Assembly (NCBI GenBank): GCA_048882505.1
Contig: JBHLRO010000038.1
Coordinates: 1 to 21,293 of the forward strand
Length of the DNA: 21,293 nt
From: Candidatus Thorarchaeota archaeon
GTDB taxonomy: Archaea > Asgardarchaeota > Heimdallarchaeia > Hodarchaeales > Hodarchaeaceae
Direction: 5' to 3'
Shown here piece after piece: positions 13,671-21,293 of this stretch; the stretch's first letter is position 1; each line of letters opens with the position of its first letter. The notes beneath the pieces were generated by a model. That model was not told where the DNA came from. It did no database searches and worked only from the letters and a program-made list of their open reading frames with translations. Both the position numbers and the translations under genes were made by a program.

Positions 13671-14522
13671 TCAGTCCTCCTTATCAAAATCCGATGCCTG
13701 TAGCAGATCCTTATTTTTCTCCGGTTCCGATGTGTCAGGACCGATGGCTTCTTCCTCGGAGGATGGTTTGGATTCTTCTACTTTTCCAGAGGCTTCTTCT
13801 GCTGGTGGGGCCCCCAGTTCTTCAAGGATTTCGGATTCGGTTTCAATTTCCTGCTCCTCTTCTTCTGGTTCTATCTCTTCAGCCTCTACTTCTTCTGGTT
13901 TTTCTTCGGCCTTTGGAGGAGCAAACACATCATAAACGATCTCAGCGTCGTCAGGCAAAGTTGCATCTGGTTGCATGATTTTGACATGAACGCCAATGAC
14001 CCCTTGTTTTAAGGTGACTTCCATGACCGAGCTGTCAACAAATTTCTCGGCGGGTTCTCCACACTTGGCTACAAAACCATCTCGAAAGACCTCAGCTCGA
14101 GCCCGTTGTGAGGTTAATTTTCCTTTGATGGTGATTTCACAACCTCGTGCATTAGCGCCCATTATACGCCGAACCAAGGCATAGCCTGCGCGTCGGAAGT
14201 GAAAGCCTTTTTGAATTTGGGAAATTAAACGTCCTGCCATCACGCGAGAATTAAGATGGGGGTTTTCCAAATCACGGACTTCGAGCTGAGGGGTCTCCAA
14301 TCCATAAACATGCTCTAGAATGTCTGTAATTTTTCGAACATTCCGTCCACGTCTTCCGATCACAATCCCTAACCGAACTGCATGGATAACGACTCTATGG
14401 CCCATGGGAGTCTTGTGGATCTCGATTTTACCCTGACCTGCGAGCTTTAGTTCGTCATTGAGGTACTCCATCACTTGTACATACTGCAGATTTTTGTGAA
14501 TGAAATTTTTCTGCGCTGCCAT
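13671..14522 (-). CDS. rps3: 30S ribosomal protein S3 (uS3) with long acidic C-terminal extension
   Basis: KTPMG, GIVIGRRG, FRRAGY, ARGCEITIKGKL and KQGVIGVHVKIM motifs, plus a ~80-aa Glu-rich tail. Confidence 0.97.
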   Translation of the reverse strand: MAAQKNFIHKNLQYVQVMEYLNDELKLAGQGKIEIHKTPMGHRVVIHAVRLGIVIGRRGRNVRKITDILEHVYGLETPQLEVRDLENPHLNSRVMAGRLISQIQKGFHFRRAGYALVRRIMGANARGCEITIKGKLTSQRARAEVFRDGFVAKCGEPAEKFVDSSVMEVTLKQGVIGVHVKIMQPDATLPDDAEIVYDVFAPPKAEEKPEEVEAEEIEPEEEEQEIETESEILEELGAPPAEEASGKVEESKPSSEEEAIGPDTSEPEKNKDLLQASDFDKED

Positions 14523-14526
14523 AAGC

Positions 14527-14988
14527 TCATTCCTCGGTTAATACAACTTCCACATGAGTTAGGGTTTTGTTACTAGGGGAGGTGCGTCCATGCGCCCGAG
14601 GAGTATAACCTCGAATTTTGCGGCCACGTAAGGCAGCGATATGTGAGATACGGAGGCGGCTGACCTCAAGGCCCTTGAAAGAGGCGTTTTGCTCTGCGCT
14701 TTCAAGCAGGCGTAAAATTTCGTAAGATGCTTTTTGCGGATAGCGACCGGCCGGCCATTTCGATAGATCATTACGATGGGGGACCTTTTTTCGATAACGG
14801 CGGAAGGGGATACTGCGTTTCTTGTCAAGAACCGCTTCTAGGTATTCTTGGGCTGTTTCTAGGTATTTCCCTTTGATTTCATGACAAATCTCCCGAGCAT
14901 GTTTCGGGGAGATGCGCAGATTGCGGCCGCAACTGACAGCAGTACGGTCGGGATCTAGGCCATAGACTGATAATTTGTATTTAGGCAT
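14527..14988 (-). CDS. rpl22: 50S ribosomal protein L22 (uL22), intact copy; the first ~18-20 codons are probably supplied by the island
   Basis: GRNLRISPKHAREIC, IPFRRY, GRYPQKA and PRAHGR motifs. The start is reassigned to ATG 14988. Confidence 0.97.
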   Translation of the reverse strand: MPKYKLSVYGLDPDRTAVSCGRNLRISPKHAREICHEIKGKYLETAQEYLEAVLDKKRSIPFRRYRKKVPHRNDLSKWPAGRYPQKASYEILRLLESAEQNASFKGLEVSRLRISHIAALRGRKIRGYTPRAHGRTSPSNKTLTHVEVVLTEE

Positions 14989-15015
14989 AAGGAGTACCAA
15001 ATAACCAATAAATAG

Positions 15016-15023
15016 TTTTTATA
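15016..15023 (-). promoter_or_regulatory. TATA box (TATAAAAA) for the rpl22-rps14-taw2 operon
   Basis: Lies 28-35 nt upstream of the rpl22 ATG, consistent with a short-leader archaeal transcript. An imperfect palindrome GACATTTAATAACTGTC (15033-15049) is just upstream. Confidence 0.6.
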
Positions 15024-15216
15024 CTAGATTGGGACATTTAATAACTGTCAGCTAAACCAATAAATGATAGTGGTTATCTTAGGCATATTCTAATTCACTT
15101 TAAAGTAAACACCTTTTAACAAAAACTTTGGTAAAACGGGCTCGAACGACCAGATAGTGGAACAACGGTGGGTTATTTCCAGTGTGCTGAGTATAGGTAG
15201 TGAGTTTGTACTCTGC

Positions 15217-15242
15217 AAAAAAAAGGAGACTTCCCTTCTCCT
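15217..15242 (-). terminator. Hairpin + U8 intrinsic-type terminator
   Basis: The - strand reads AGGAGA-AGGGAAG-TCTCCT followed by a T-run (A-run at 15217-15224 on +). Confidence 0.5.
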
Positions 15243-15372
15243 AATGTCCATTCCAGACGATCTTTCTTCCTTCCGTTGGCATCTTTCTACGAACCAAATA
15301 CCCTCACGGGTATTTCGGCTTCTGAATACCTAGATGGGTTTTCGCTTGTATATCTCACAAACGGGTCGATTT

Positions 15373-15590
15373 TCCCTCGGTAAACTTGGAAAATACGTCT
15401 GAGGGGCAGGAGACTCCCCCGTTTTGCCGTGTTCACGCACCCCCCATGAAATCCTCGAGGCGCGTAACGGGGGCAGGCCGTGGGTTTTCGGCCCAAAAAT
15501 CCGCGTCCCTCGGTGAAATGTTTTCGAAGCGTAACGGGGACGGTGGAGTGCCCCGTTGACTTTTTTCGGATTTCCCCCCGAGGAACCTTT
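15373..15590. repeat. Degenerate ~67-bp tandem repeat array (about 3.3 units), non-coding
   Basis: TCCCTCGGT at 15373/15506, GGGGCAGG at 15403/15470, GCGTAACGGGG at 15462/15529 and CCCCGTT at 15417/15551; C-runs begin at 15374, 15440, 15507 and 15574. Confidence 0.65.
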
Positions 15591-15790
15591 TCATGTTACC
15601 TATAAAAACTACCAGATTTCAATGAAATGTTTAAGATTGATTTTGTAGATAACCAAAATTTGCGTCTTTGGTTTTGGGGGTCTTGCGTAATAATCAACAA
15701 GGAGTTTAAACCTATTCATTTGGAAAATCACATACGAAAACTTCTTTCCTCGTTGTGAACAGGGAAGAATCCATTGGTAGGTTCTCCCTG

Positions 15791-15990
15791 CTAATTTGGT
15801 TTCTCTAATACTATGATTGACGTTTGAACATCAGTTCCGCTAGCAGAAACGCTCCGGATGGAACCTCTTCGGTTTTAGTACAATATCTTTCTAGGAGTTC
15901 TGTAAAGAATCGTCTGTCTTTCCTCCGTGAATGCTTACTCAGTAATAGTCCGCTGGGCAGAATTACTACTAGTATTCCCCCCTTTAAAAG
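15791..15990 (-). pseudogene. Frameshifted fragment of an N6-adenine DNA methyltransferase (C-terminal motif region)
   Basis: Reads LLKGGILVVILPSGLLLSKHSRRKDRRFFTELLERYCTKTEEVPSGAF, then after a 1-nt loss near 15847 continues (S)ASGTDVQTSIIVLEKPN*. This matches the 'GG.L..ILP.G...LP.GAF..SGT.V.T.I.VL.K' pattern of N6-MTases. There is an in-frame stop upstream and no NPPY/F motif was found. Confidence 0.6.
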
Positions 15991-16134
15991 AGAAGATCCT
16001 CTGGAGCGTCTTCATTCCCTTATAAACCTATCAGCGCCATGCTTGGGATGGACACACTTCGTGTCTCAATCCCCATTTATAATGTACCCGCATTAGTTCC
16101 TCTTTTAACTTATTGTCTTCCGGAAGACATTCCT

Positions 16135-19100
16135 ATGGCACTTGATAGATCTAAAACATACTATGTCGCACTTTGCGTCTTTCTTGTCGTTGGTGGGCTG
16201 GCCACCGCATATAGTACGGGGCGGGAAGTCCAACTCATACCCCACAACCCGAAAAGAACCCCTGATAAAGTCGTGGCCTACCTCAACAGCTACCTGAACG
16301 AAAAAGTGAACCCCACTACCCTGTCAGATGTCTTGGTGACCCAGTACATCGAACATCCGCACGAAGCTACGGATGTTATGCCTCTCTATCCCACTCAGTC
16401 CATCGTTCAAGAATATTTCCTTGTCAATTGTTCCCTCACGGAGATCGAATTCTATTTAGTGCCAGGAGAAGACCCTATTGGAACAGATGTCGGGATTTCC
16501 ATCTATACCAAACCAACCAACGATTCTGTATGGCGATTAGAGCGCTATCAACCTGTCTCTACACGAGGTCTTGAAAGTACCTCCCAACACATAATCATTG
16601 AGGCCCCCCGCATCACCGTGGGGCACGAAGGAACATATCTACGAGTGATGATCACTAACTTCGGGGATGAGAATTCCGATGTTGTATATGTCCCCTTACA
16701 TCGGAATTTTAACGAAAAAATAACGTTTTCGGGAATTAACACCGCGGTAGACACTGACATGGGGATTTTTCTGACGATTAAGAATCGTTTTCGGAAACTG
16801 TATGGCTATCGTTATTTTGCTGTCTATGAGCCCGGTGACGGTGTGCAATTCTATAGAAGTATGTATCGGACAGATCAGAAAGGGACACCGTCAGTGAAAT
16901 CATCTGAAGTGATCGCGCTTTTTGATGATCTCACCTTACTGCGGAAGGATAGCATTTACGAACCATACATTGAATTTGAAAGCCCTCTGGAAATGTTCTT
17001 ACCCCGTGAAATTAAGGAATCAAATCTCGTACAACACGTTTATCGTATACTGAAGGGTATACCTGGAATCGGGGCACTCTTCCAGTACAAACCCACCCCA
17101 GTAGTTTATTCAATGGGTACTAGTACGGTGCATAAAGAGGATGAGACTTTTTTGACATTTACGGATCGGCTGATACGACAAGCACAAAGTGATATCAATT
17201 TTATCTCAGTTCCTGTCCTCAAAACGTTAAATCTTGGAAGAGAAGACGGGGTACTCTCACTCGAGGAAAAAATTAATCGGTTAGACTCTTTTGAAAAACA
17301 CTTTGTATCTGTGTATAATGAACTCGAATCCCAATTCACATACGAAATGAATGACATAAGTCCGACCCAAATCGAGCTAACGAAGACGGACGAGCGGGGA
17401 AAGTTACTCTCGAAATGGTATTTCGATTTATCCCGCTCCCTTGACGAGATGGTCAGCGAAATTTCCGTCCTCGATTTGACGCAGAGTGTAACCCGCATTA
17501 GTTTTCTCAGTTTGCTCAATACTCTCAATAGCCAGTATTTTTCCAGCAAAGAACGAGGAACGAGCGCAACTCAAGAAATAGGGCGAAGAGAACACTTTCA
17601 CTTGGTTAGTCAGGCTAGTACGTTAAATTTCAACCATTTAACCAAACTTATGGCAGATGTGGCCAAGCCTGAATTCCTCTCAGATAACGTCACAATCCTT
17701 TCCAACCCCAATAATGGCACTTTTATGGTCATTGATGGGACAGGTAAAATCGTTCAGGAATTCATGTTGGCAGGTAGTTCAGAGTACTTCGGAATCTCGA
17801 ATCCATTGGTACCCAGTCAGGAAAACCGTCTCCAGATGTGGCTTGCAAAGACTTTTGGCCCGTGGGCGAATCTGCAAGTCCCAGACAAACGTCCAGCGGA
17901 CACTTGGAGTACTACCCTTTATTCGATGGATGAAGAACGGGACGAAAATGATTATTGGACCCCTCTAATTAATTATTCGCGCCCCCTGGCCCTATCCCCT
18001 GGCGGGGTCGGTACGACATCTCGTGGTTGGTATGCGGGTAATCGTATTTATGATTATAGTTCCTCTGTCCCCAATTGGGAAGACGTTTCCGATGTTGATT
18101 GGGATACCGCTGGGGTGACGTGGAGTTACGGATCCACTGCCAGTGACGACCTAAAAATCCAAGGCGGGGATACGGGGTATTGGACTGGTAACATTAATGG
18201 CCACTTTATGGACAACAATGGATGGCTCATGCTCGACTTGGGTGATGAGCTCCCCGAGACTACTCATTGGAAAGTCAGTTTCGATATCAAAAAAGATGAG
18301 TGGCCGCCTCTTGGGTCTGGTGCGAAGCAAGGGGATTATATTAGTGGGAGTTGGGTAGAATCGGGCCTGGGTGTACATTTGACCGATGACGTGGGAATCT
18401 TAGAGTTGATGACCCGCAATGGCACGTATTCCAATGACATTGAGTTCTGGCTTCCCTTACAATTTGGTGATGGGGAGCTTCTCTCCGATGGGTACACCTC
18501 CTTCATTGTGTATGACCCTCGATTTAATTATAATTACACCCGCTATAATGATGTTTTTAATGCGGGTCTGCCTGGTGCTGAGCAATTATGGCATTGGGCA
18601 GGTGGGACACTCAATGGAGATGGACTTGCACGATATTTCCATGAAATGACGTATCCCCACGAAGATCCCAGTGGTCTGGGCGTGTTAAAACTGACTCCAG
18701 ACCAATGGTACCATATTGACATTTATTATGACGAATACAGTCATATGTTAACTATCCTAGTAGATAATCGTGTCGTCTTATCGAGTCTCTACATGCCTCC
18801 CCTGGTGAGCGGGTCTCGGTTTGAGAATATATGGTTCTATAATTTCGGTAGAGATACGAGCGTCATTAGTAACTTATACATCACGGACGCGGTTCCCTCC
18901 ATTATGCCTTTTACCACATCTGTGGCGGATGTGGGAAGAATCACAGGGTACCTCCCTGGGGGAGGAGATGATAAGGGTCTCGATTTGACGGGGGCGGTCA
19001 TTCCCTATTGGAATACGGATCCCCTCTGGCCTACACAAGGGAAGCAACAATCTGACGGCATTATTACCACTATTGGGCAGTCGATCCAGATGGGACAGGG

Positions 19101-21228
19101 AGCCATGGATCATATATATTGGATTGACATGAATTCCAACGGTATTGGAGAGTCTGGGGAATATTACTTGGGTGATTTTCTCTTCCAAGGCAAAGAATCA
19201 GTCATTTCCTCACAGTATCTCGAAGGGGGATCGACATCGTACTCTGGGCTGTTGCCGCTGCAAAGTACATCTACTGCAAATCTCCTCAGTCCCCAAGGTT
19301 ATAATTTTACTTTCATGGACTATACTGTGGGGATGGGTGAAATTGACGCAGGAACTGGACCCCGAAAATACCCAGCGGGTACCCGAGACTATTCCAAGAT
19401 CGTAGAGTGGGACGAATTTGAATTCCTCCTCCGATCCCTGCTCATCACTGATTATGACTATACTACCACGGATCTTGAATACCCCTCGAATGGCTCCTCC
19501 CCGTGGATAGGGCCACAACATCATGAAGTTTTGTGGGGTGACGCTGTCCAAGACTTCTTTACGCATACCAGCGGCGGGCAAATTCAGGTGGACAACCTTG
19601 ATGGCTGGGGGATGGTGTTGGCAAGCTTGGTATCAATACTCGATGCGGCCTCGGTCTATAAAGTTTCCCCGTATTGGGATCGCTCCGTGGATTATCCCAG
19701 CCTCGAGCTAGATCAAACTGGAACCGCATTTACAGATAGTACAGATTTTTGGGGGTTCCAGGATGCTAGTCTCACCACGGATCGATATTGGACGCCAGGT
19801 TACGCTGGGGTCACTTCATTCACGAGTGGGGGTGAAGTGGGACTCTCCTCATTTTATTCCGCTGATGCCTCAGAGAATACAACATACGGGGGACGTAAGT
19901 GGTATTTTTATGGGTTAGATACTGCGGAAAGTGGCGCTTATAAATTATCTCTTGCAGATCTTACTGATCCGCAATATAACGCGCTTACTCGGTTTGAGAA
20001 TGTCACCTCCCTTTCCGATCAGCGCATTATCGTCCAAGGTATTCGTCATTTTTCATATCTGGATCCAACAACCGAACTCGTGGATTATGAGACCTATTCA
20101 TTACAGTTGGCATCTTTGGATTTAGACGGCGACCAAAACCTCGAAACGATTGTGGTTCCTGCCCGATGGAACACAACCACAACGGATGGAGTTGCCACCA
20201 CTACGACGTTGGATCAGATCTACGATGATCCCTCAGACCTTTTTGTGAAATTGATTGATGAGGACGGTTCTGGTGTCTTCGAACGATATGAAAAGGGACC
20301 ATTAGGGAGGTATTTGGCCCCCGATTACATGGTCGGGAATGCCATGAATTGGATTCAATTAGACCAAGCTGAGCGCCCCTCCGATTCCCTGGGCTGGCTT
20401 ATGGAGTCGTTAAGCGGAATTATGATGGGTTTCTTAGAAACCCTCCCTGTCCTTTCAGATATTTTTGATCTGATCGTCCAAACGCTTACGTGGGGTGTGG
20501 TGGAAATTCTCGGTCTGGGCCTATCCCTTCTCCATTTGTTGTGGGATCCAATCGTACTAATGATCTTGACCAGAAGTACCTTGGTGATCGACCACATCGT
20601 ATACGAGGGGGAAATCGATTCCCGCGATGGAACCGAGAAGGATGACGGGCGGCAACGGATTGATGCCGCTGGCAATCCCTCCTCAACAGGCCAATATAGT
20701 CGGAGTTGGGGGATCAAGGGAAATGGTTTGGATGACACCTACGATCAAAACGTTATCAGCTATCTTCGCATGCTAGACCAGCTCATTGTCGCCATTCAAG
20801 ATTTCATCCAGGATGGTCACAGCGAATTCCTTGGTGGAAACGCCAATGAAGGGGTCATGGCCCTCAAAGAGGTCTTTGCTCGTGCTTATCAACAGCTCGA
20901 TCCCAATATTGAGATATCTGATTGGAAAGATATTCTTCATGGTGAATATCCTGGCAACGTGGATCTGTCGCCAGCGGTTGTTACTTCTACGGTTGAGAAT
21001 ATCATGGAGACGGGGGCGCCAGGAACATATGATGATGATCTGAAAAACCTACTACAGTGGTTGACGGATACGAATACTCAGATACAAGCTACCAAACGAC
21101 GTTCACACACCAAGACGATTGGGGGCGAACAAGACGAGAAGAAAGACCTAGCGGGTTCTGAGGGCCAACTTACCAAACGGCGGGTTCTGAGGGCCGCGAC
21201 CGCGGTTCGATCTGGGTCTAGGCCATAG
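16135..21228 (+). CDS. Giant predicted secreted/membrane-anchored glycoprotein (~1697 aa) with a LamG/ConA-like beta-sandwich and Ca-binding-like motifs; C-terminus possibly truncated
   Basis: Uninterrupted ORF. The start is reassigned to MALDRSKTYYVALCVFLVVGGLATAYS (signal/anchor). It has at least a dozen N-x-S/T sequons, a LamG-like LTPDQWYHIDIYYD...LTILVDN segment, DxDxDG-like motifs (DMNSNG, DLDGDQ, DEDGSG) and a hydrophobic stretch at about 20389-20586. Confidence 0.8.
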   Translation: MALDRSKTYYVALCVFLVVGGLATAYSTGREVQLIPHNPKRTPDKVVAYLNSYLNEKVNPTTLSDVLVTQYIEHPHEATDVMPLYPTQSIVQEYFLVNCSLTEIEFYLVPGEDPIGTDVGISIYTKPTNDSVWRLERYQPVSTRGLESTSQHIIIEAPRITVGHEGTYLRVMITNFGDENSDVVYVPLHRNFNEKITFSGINTAVDTDMGIFLTIKNRFRKLYGYRYFAVYEPGDGVQFYRSMYRTDQKGTPSVKSSEVIALFDDLTLLRKDSIYEPYIEFESPLEMFLPREIKESNLVQHVYRILKGIPGIGALFQYKPTPVVYSMGTSTVHKEDETFLTFTDRLIRQAQSDINFISVPVLKTLNLGREDGVLSLEEKINRLDSFEKHFVSVYNELESQFTYEMNDISPTQIELTKTDERGKLLSKWYFDLSRSLDEMVSEISVLDLTQSVTRISFLSLLNTLNSQYFSSKERGTSATQEIGRREHFHLVSQASTLNFNHLTKLMADVAKPEFLSDNVTILSNPNNGTFMVIDGTGKIVQEFMLAGSSEYFGISNPLVPSQENRLQMWLAKTFGPWANLQVPDKRPADTWSTTLYSMDEERDENDYWTPLINYSRPLALSPGGVGTTSRGWYAGNRIYDYSSSVPNWEDVSDVDWDTAGVTWSYGSTASDDLKIQGGDTGYWTGNINGHFMDNNGWLMLDLGDELPETTHWKVSFDIKKDEWPPLGSGAKQGDYISGSWVESGLGVHLTDDVGILELMTRNGTYSNDIEFWLPLQFGDGELLSDGYTSFIVYDPRFNYNYTRYNDVFNAGLPGAEQLWHWAGGTLNGDGLARYFHEMTYPHEDPSGLGVLKLTPDQWYHIDIYYDEYSHMLTILVDNRVVLSSLYMPPLVSGSRFENIWFYNFGRDTSVISNLYITDAVPSIMPFTTSVADVGRITGYLPGGGDDKGLDLTGAVIPYWNTDPLWPTQGKQQSDGIITTIGQSIQMGQGAMDHIYWIDMNSNGIGESGEYYLGDFLFQGKESVISSQYLEGGSTSYSGLLPLQSTSTANLLSPQGYNFTFMDYTVGMGEIDAGTGPRKYPAGTRDYSKIVEWDEFEFLLRSLLITDYDYTTTDLEYPSNGSSPWIGPQHHEVLWGDAVQDFFTHTSGGQIQVDNLDGWGMVLASLVSILDAASVYKVSPYWDRSVDYPSLELDQTGTAFTDSTDFWGFQDASLTTDRYWTPGYAGVTSFTSGGEVGLSSFYSADASENTTYGGRKWYFYGLDTAESGAYKLSLADLTDPQYNALTRFENVTSLSDQRIIVQGIRHFSYLDPTTELVDYETYSLQLASLDLDGDQNLETIVVPARWNTTTTDGVATTTTLDQIYDDPSDLFVKLIDEDGSGVFERYEKGPLGRYLAPDYMVGNAMNWIQLDQAERPSDSLGWLMESLSGIMMGFLETLPVLSDIFDLIVQTLTWGVVEILGLGLSLLHLLWDPIVLMILTRSTLVIDHIVYEGEIDSRDGTEKDDGRQRIDAAGNPSSTGQYSRSWGIKGNGLDDTYDQNVISYLRMLDQLIVAIQDFIQDGHSEFLGGNANEGVMALKEVFARAYQQLDPNIEISDWKDILHGEYPGNVDLSPAVVTSTVENIMETGAPGTYDDDLKNLLQWLTDTNTQIQATKRRSHTKTIGGEQDEKKDLAGSEGQLTKRRVLRAATAVRSGSRP
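21151..21195. repeat. 16-bp perfect direct repeat GCGGGTTCTGAGGGCC (x2) at the island's right junction
   Basis: Copies at 21151-21166 and 21180-21195, separated by 13 nt. The second copy overlaps the end of the rpl22 remnant. Confidence 0.9.
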
Positions 21229-21251
21229 ACAGATAACTTATAACTGGGCAA
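21195..21251 (-). pseudogene. rpl22: Orphaned 5' fragment of rpl22 (TTG start; L/M-PSYKLSVYGLDPDRTAVA)
   Basis: Matches the intact rpl22 N-terminus MPKYKLSVYGLDPDRTAVS: 41/54 nt are identical over codons 1-18, with 10 synonymous third-position differences and one amino-acid change after the start codon. Similarity ends abruptly after codon 18-20. Confidence 0.9.
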
Positions 21252-21293
21252 TCTGGAATCAACTATCTACATTACTATGTGTTTTTCTATAAT

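Follow-up and report, generated by a model that had tools for sequence, protein, structure and literature searches.

In the Asgard archaeon studied here, the start of rpl22, the gene for ribosomal protein uL22, has been exchanged for a foreign one. The window analysed is an entire contig (JBHLRO010000038.1, C38 below; 21,293 nt) of a Candidatus Thorarchaeota archaeon whose genome assembly (GCA_048882505.1, G000 below) comprises 83 contigs and 4.3 Mb and is 94.5% complete. An insert of 6,267 nt brings the first 20 codons of the working gene together with a candidate promoter, and the native start is left as an orphan at its far end. The population is polymorphic at this site: about half of it carries the insert, and the flanks are otherwise identical in both states. 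An initial annotation, made from the letters alone, had placed two same-strand copies of the rpl22 5′ end, at 14988-14935 and 21251-21198, around an accessory segment of about 6.2 kb; both copies were located there, and the exact insert runs from 14929 to 21195.

The two states of the locus were traced in public assemblies (unitigs or contigs) of sequencing runs, placed on positions 14000-21293. In the probable source run, one unitig of 6,327 nt (14899-21225) covers the insert and 30 nt of each flank at a depth of 19.5, while the flanking unitigs have a depth of about 35, so that the island stands at about 55% of the local depth; a short empty-site unitig has a depth of 9. The same unitig serves the orphan side of the filled and the empty alleles (depth 35, zero differences), and for at least 1.6 kb to one side of the site and 7.7 kb to the other the flanks common to both alleles do not differ. 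The filled right junction was found in two runs and the filled left junction in one (X1); the second run has pieces of the cargo besides the filled right junction, and the third, from another study, the empty site and one cargo piece. Molecules with an empty site, which the initial annotation had proposed to look for, were found in all three runs, from two studies (X1, X2 and X3). In these the empty allele joins 14928 to 21196 via TGTG (plus strand), and in the sense of the gene it reads GTC GCC ACA GGC CGC AAT (V-A-T-G-R-N), exactly as in G016, a Candidatus Heimdallarchaeota metagenome-assembled genome that is the closest relative. The orphan had been predicted to join the native remainder in frame; such a junction does exist, but it does not have the predicted reading V-A-A-G-R-N. 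Since the empty allele has four bases that are missing from the filled one, it represents the uninvaded state and not a product of excision. A circular junction, which had likewise been named as something to look for, was not seen in the unitigs; in the source run the island runs unbroken into both flanks, though contigs can miss rare forms.

The comparison with G016, whose uL22 is 91% identical to the product of the working gene, tells which of the two starts is native. Together with the 60 nt that precede it, the orphan is nearly identical to the rpl22 start of G016, the TTG start codon included. Over the first 60 nt, the native start (the orphan plus the four bases missing from the filled allele) agrees with G016 at 54/60 positions and with other members of the genus at 41-45/60. 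The working gene, in contrast, agrees with G016 at only 39/60 positions over its first 60 nt, with the native start at 41/60 and with eight genus members at 35-43/60; from GGCCGCAAT on it tracks G016, with about 90% nucleotide identity over the rest of the gene. It is a chimera, in which codons 1-20 (14929-14988) are island-borne and codons 21-153 (14527-14928) are native. Its product matches Ribosomal_L22 (PF00237) with an E-value of 7.6e-28 over residues 21-151, which was counted as a full-length match. By these figures the working start is as far from the native start as that of another species of the genus would be. The earlier proposal that the native 5′ end had been displaced, and the gene completed by a different allele, is borne out, and the orphan can be named as the host allele.

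Both starts have the marks of functional coding sequence. Over codons 2-18 they differ by 10 synonymous and 2 non-synonymous nucleotides, which amount to one amino-acid change; the proportions of differing synonymous and non-synonymous sites (pS 0.76, pN 0.053; Fisher p about 1e-6) agree with the count of ten silent changes against one replacement made at the outset, and argue that both evolved as working uL22 N-termini under selection at the protein level. The lineage-specific residues L6, Y9 and P13 are present in both the island start and the native one. Homology between the copies extends to codon 20, and codons 19-20 differ at 6/6 bases. The two starts form the sole long direct repeat of the region (53 nt, 77% identical, at a distance of 6,263 nt), and a search of the 4.3-Mb genome for rpl22-like sequence returned, besides the gene itself, the orphan alone (blastn E 2e-4; protein E 1.1e-4). 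Within the repeat lies an identical block of 14 nt, which ends 21 nt from the junction and may be a conversion patch. We considered this block as a crossover core and rejected it, for the orphan is native for 21 nt beyond the block and the empty allele joins at codon 20. Contig C26 ends, and the vertex shared at k=77 begins, exactly at the last base of the block (21217); the break at this place implies a third allele differing at 21216, which could be an empty allele with a single-nucleotide polymorphism or a block-to-block recombinant.

The exchange preserved the reading of the gene. The 20 foreign codons are joined in register to native codon 21, and uL22 stays at 153 aa. Upstream of the island-borne ATG, the candidate promoter region of the island has no similarity to the region upstream of native rpl22. 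Behind rpl22 follow ten genes identified by Pfam matches: rps3, rpl29, the gene of the RNase P protein Rpp29 (rnp1), rps17, rpl14, rpl24, rps4e, rpl5, rps14 and a Taw2/Trm5-type methyltransferase gene (taw2). Judged from the TATA-box-like motif, rpl22 and these genes, from rps3 to taw2, would now be read from the island-borne candidate promoter, while the native promoter and start would be stranded, facing the 3′ end of the cargo gene. Transcription from the stranded promoter would run antisense into that gene, and a terminator-like hairpin within the island would halt such transcripts. The open reading frame (ORF) that the native promoter and start open in the filled allele has 57 aa (21078-21251, minus strand) and consists of 18 uL22 residues followed by antisense-of-cargo sequence.

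On the far side of the orphan, the native order of genes could be followed beyond the contig. C38 and C26 overlap exactly, in reverse complement, by their last 77 nt (44 end overlaps at k=77 exist in the assembly of G000), and C26, which carries rps19 at its end, extends the locus to the right as had been recommended. The rps19 gene points away from the orphan across a spacer of 245 nt, the same length as the rps19-rpl22 spacer of G016; in the 8 relatives of the genus in which the locus was read across, the two genes are adjacent and divergent with nothing between them. No rps19 tail lies upstream of the orphan because rps19 is natively divergent from rpl22 in the genus. Of the two explanations that the initial annotation had offered for this, an operon already split at this point agrees with the synteny with G016, while a second element integrated in tandem is ruled out by it. 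Among the matches listed, none was to an rps19 relic in the island; with the rps19-rpl22 spacers of relatives, the island has only the rpl22 start itself in common. A tRNA scan found no tRNA genes in the window. In 31 related genomes, searched with uL22, the insert was not seen at rpl22, and in 8 of these the locus itself was read across; the island-type start V-S-C-G-R-N was found in 0/400 Asgard genomes, and neither its pattern nor a native 35-mer had a match in Joint Genome Institute (JGI) metagenome contigs. The features of the locus are collected in Table 1.

Table 1. Features of the rpl22 locus in window coordinates.
Feature	Position	Strand	Basis or remark
Working rpl22 (uL22, 153 aa), chimera	14527..14988	-	Ribosomal_L22 Pfam match
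Insertion, 6,267 nt	14929..21195	.	Replaces four bases, CACA (gene sense), of the empty allele
TATA-box-like TATAAAAA, candidate promoter	15016..15023	-	Read from sequence; 28-35 nt upstream of the island-borne ATG
Hairpin GGAGA..TCTCC, then T8; terminator-like	15217..15242	-	Read from sequence
Repeated element, ~190 nt, nested conserved helices	15412..15600	.	blastn, consensus fold
Cargo ORF, 1,729 aa	16039..21228	+	Probable start M33 at 16135
Junction patchwork	21151..21195	.	16-mer GCGGGTTCTGAGGGCC twice: 21151-21166 and 21180-21195
Orphan: native rpl22 start (TTG; codons 1 to 19 and two thirds), at its native position	21196..21251	-	G016 comparison
Native rpl22 upstream region	21252..21293	-	TATA-like ATTATAGAAAAA at 21282-21293; runs on into C26 toward divergent rps19

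Between the two rpl22 copies there is about 1 kb without credible ORFs, whose small ORFs have no family match, and a single plus-strand ORF, the cargo gene. Its predicted product begins with a hydrophobic anchor at the N-terminus, is hydrophobic again near residues 1475-1510, ends in a tail of about 200 aa and has no match to a Pfam or NCBIfam family; it would be a membrane-anchored protein of roughly 1,700 aa from a lineage-specific family. Paralogues occur only in G000, and one of them forms the first 1,574 aa of an ORF of 14,729 aa, a single open frame on the minus strand of another contig (C14:6854-51040). One homologue from outside this genome was found among 5.8 billion clusters, and a search of 1.84 billion representatives gave seven matches. 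The sole outside homologue (P0004, on a Logan contig) has no gene-end duplication around it. A look-up of the cargo in the ESM Atlas gave scores at noise level, and viral contigs searched with a cargo profile had no match; the fold predicted for residues 620-1000 from a 3-sequence alignment was unusable, with a mean predicted local distance difference test (pLDDT) score of 36. The insert ends almost exactly at the natural end of the cargo gene. The last 10 codons and the stop of the ORF lie in native DNA, antisense to the orphan.

The part of the island without credible ORFs holds an element of about 190 nt, of which two more copies exist in the genome (C14:3801-4000 and C35:775-985; 79% and 72% identity by blastn). 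Its consensus fold has conserved stems (CCCUCGG / GAAAU / AACGGGG..CCCCGUU) and a variable loop, and we regard it as a candidate structured RNA or regulatory site. It was not found in 21 other genomes of the genus and has no Rfam match, and an Rfam scan of the island was likewise empty. The copies on C14 and C35 sit between a conserved familyless gene of 329 aa and the gene of a beta-helix secreted protein.

The far junction is a patchwork. The two junctions share only GC-GGCC, and in the empty site the prefix and the suffix that it has in common with the filled allele are separated by CACA. The second copy of GCGGGTTCTGAGGGCC abuts the junction, its other copy lies 29 nt inside the insert, and the 16-mer is found nowhere else in the genome. 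The cargo ORF passes through the two copies in different frames, and the duplication must therefore have happened at the level of DNA. The signs of a DDE transposon, an insertion sequence or a casposon were missing, since there are no terminal inverted repeats at 14929/21195 and the target bases were lost rather than duplicated. Pfam, NCBIfam and small-ORF searches found no recombinase in the insert, nor did it match LAGLIDADG, HNH or GIY-YIG families, and a relic of the genome's own LAGLIDADG protein was looked for in the island and not found. The whole genome has one match to PF00589 (tyrosine recombinase) and zero to PF00239 (serine recombinase). A conservative exchange at a core identical at both junctions does not describe the sequence, although one extra deletion step would rescue it. 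The integrase-type element using rpl22 as attB that was first suggested is not supported by these observations: no recombinase is encoded in the insert, the junctions have no identical core and four target bases are missing.

We favour, with a probability of roughly 0.55, the reading that the insert came from a related lineage through break repair, as an “end-swap cassette”, and is not a self-integrating element. Foreign DNA from that lineage would have entered at a single break in rpl22. The joint on the gene side would have been guided by homology, which in this proposal accounts for the exact register there. The far joint would be an illegitimate one, made by end joining; it is read in this way because of the four lost bases, the GC/GGCC microhomology, the duplicated 16-mer as filler and the crossing of the cargo ORF into native DNA. 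The source was probably an unsampled close relative, given that the foreign start is as diverged as those of other species of the genus and that the cargo family and the ~190-nt element occur only in the lineage of this genome. No enzyme for the proposed steps is encoded in the insert. Two routes would fit, namely one-ended invasion followed by end joining, or homology-facilitated illegitimate recombination, a process reportedly described by de Vries and Wackernagel in 2002 for naturally transformable bacteria, in which one joint is said to be guided by homology while at the other, made at a microhomology only a few bases long, bases of the recipient are lost. That process uses an anchor of donor origin in bacteria, whereas at rpl22 no donor sequence is visible on the anchor side. 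Alternatively, a preformed cassette could have been copied into an empty site that had been broken, in the manner of homing-endonuclease cassettes.

The same genome holds other loci of comparable layout. A scan for short orphan copies of gene ends near their genes returned the rpl22 case and about twenty others. At C2:360202-363650 (L034), a free-standing gene (361757-363406) for a 550-aa LAGLIDADG endonuclease with multiple helix-turn-helix domains sits inside the 3′ end of an aldehyde dehydrogenase gene; the last ~125 nt of the latter are duplicated, the working copy is foreign, the orphan is native and G016 is empty. This is a cassette of the mobile-ORF (mORF) type, discussed below, in an Asgard archaeon. 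At C2:115799-119929, an insert of 1.84 kb with one ORF of 492 aa (weak PMT_2 match) lies between two copies of the last ~20 codons of a gene of 745 aa; the orphan and the sequence downstream are the native copy, and G016 has an empty site. At C11:49077-62841 (L040), four diverged orphan copies of the end of the gene of the transcription factor TFB, each with its last ~20 codons and ~50 nt downstream, lie behind that gene, and between the copies are genes for a heavy-metal P-type ATPase, an AhpC-like protein, a solute-binding protein and unknowns. Of this array, in which no integrase was found, 7.9 kb are missing from G016. No unknown protein family was common to the other islands. On this comparison, cargo flanked by diverged gene-end copies is recurrent in the genome, and we count these loci in favour of the end-swap reading.

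Several observations weigh against arrival by break repair. No donor was found in the 400 Asgard genomes or the JGI contigs, and the use of the island promoter is deduced from its sequence. The end of the insert near the natural end of the cargo gene looks more like that of a defined unit than like a random break, and several loci of the same layout in one genome argue for a systematic mechanism instead of one-off accidents. In addition, a conservative exchange at GGCC could have come first, with the four bases deleted only afterwards from the dead orphan; both histories give the same sequence, and a recombinase acting in trans is therefore possible. The insert would then be a cis-mobilisable element (CIME-like) without an integrase of its own, with an attP that contains a copy of the rpl22 5′ end and a recombinase encoded elsewhere. 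We consider this unlikely, though much in the architecture suits it. The insertion is precise, in register and at a single site, with flanks native up to both junctions; the insert is compact and ends where its gene ends; GC-GGCC occurs at both junctions, and the GGCC-containing 16-mer repeated 29 nt inside resembles a protein-binding site. The TFB gene with its four successive orphan 3′ ends also looks like an integration hot spot. Yet the insert has no recombinase and the nearly complete genome offers only the one tyrosine and zero serine recombinase matches; the prefix and suffix of the empty site do not overlap but leave four bases between them; and the only identical block, that of 14 nt, is away from the junction. 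The island unitig is unbroken at its ends in the source run, with no circular junction there (subject to what contigs can miss), and the element is absent from rpl22 in the related genomes and its start from the Asgard genomes searched. Recombinase action on GTCGCCACAGGCCGC would count against the break-repair reading.

A quite different history would start from an old duplication of the rpl22 start in place, at the insertion of the cargo, kept since then as a long-lived balanced polymorphism; the working copy would have drifted at silent sites while recombination kept the orphan identical to the empty allele. The age of the event cannot be read from the identical flanks, since recombination could have evened them out as far as the junction, and both the residues L6, Y9 and P13 common to the two copies and the 14-nt block, suggestive of gene conversion between them, would suit such a history. 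The silent sites, however, are saturated, while G000 and G016 differ by only ~10%, and the polymorphism would therefore far predate the split of these two; G016 and all other examined relatives show only the empty state, and codons 19-20 differ at every base. We hold this history to be very improbable. Least credible of all, to the point of being negligible, is an assembly artefact in which the contig end joins two strains or species. The orphan does lie 42 nt from the contig end, in an assembly with many k=77 end overlaps, and a chimeric end had been named beforehand as one finding that would overturn the case; it is contradicted by the single 6,327-nt unitig across both junctions, the recurrence of the right junction in a second run and the clean bubble that the empty path forms on shared flanks. 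Entry by break repair remains the reading we prefer.

Replacement of a gene end by an inserted element is already known from bacteria and from fungal mitochondria. In bacteria, integrative and conjugative elements of the SXT/R391 family sit in the 5′ end of prfC, and e14 and phage 21 in the 3′ end of icd, and these elements supply a replacement end, which in icd has many silent differences; they are integrase-mediated, have an identical att core and can excise. The rpl22 island shares with them the interruption of a housekeeping gene and the replacement end, but integrase, att core and excision were not found here. A close likeness is with the mORF hybrid genes of fungal mitochondria, atp6 of Allomyces macrogynus and atp6, atp9, cox2 and nad3 of Glomus, in which the native end is ~91% identical to a close relative and the inserted end ~64% identical to the native one, with mostly silent changes (PMC3630166). 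The corresponding figures here, 90% and 68%, are nearly the same, and at rpl22 too a foreign end in register, a native orphan and filled and empty alleles on identical flanks were found. The mORFs, however, replace 3′ ends and carry the LAGLIDADG or GIY-YIG endonuclease that moves them (PMC3630166), while the rpl22 island replaces a 5′ end and promoter and carries a 5-kb membrane-protein gene, with no endonuclease found.

Among archaea, a survey of 68 integrated elements of Thaumarchaeota placed 39 in tRNA genes, 15 between genes and 14 in the 3′-distal parts of genes (PMC6563490). The last of these resemble our case as archaeal insertions in protein-coding genes verified against empty sites in relatives; the elements carry integrases or casposases and short att or target-site-duplication repeats, and none of the cases that the survey lists involves a 5′ end, promoter or ribosomal gene (PMC6563490). 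The aloposons of Heimdallarchaeum are likewise mobile DNA of the Heimdall group with giant genes as the main cargo: they have tandem genes of 3,000-6,000 aa and four conserved upstream genes, a MinD/ParA ATPase gene among them, and lie at tRNA genes (PMC8813620). The rpl22 island differs in having one ORF of 1,729 aa, no tRNA gene in the window and no ATPase gene. What is new here is that the 5′ end and promoter of a ribosomal protein gene were swapped, that the host is an Asgard archaeon, that the cargo is a large gene in an insert encoding no mobility enzyme, and that filled and empty alleles are documented in one population.

It is tempting to see the rpl22 island, the LAGLIDADG cassette, the cassette in the 745-aa gene and the TFB orphan array as products of one process, in which cassettes would bring a replacement end and, in the case of rpl22, the promoter of a ribosomal operon as well, and would be driven by a nuclease in trans or by homologous recombination at gene ends. 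Heimdall-group archaea may then have a general, integrase-free way of acquiring genes through end-swap cassettes that land in conserved gene ends, a generalization which we put forward as doubtful. There is also a caution for genomics, as ribosomal marker genes can be chimeric and such sites break assemblies. For the biology of these organisms, the finding means that horizontally acquired DNA can take the place of the start and promoter of an essential ribosomal operon in an archaeon closely related to eukaryotes, and that the replaced start can persist at about half of a natural population. The read-supported rpl22 polymorphism offers a concrete case in which the uptake of foreign genes by Asgard archaea without known integrases can be studied.

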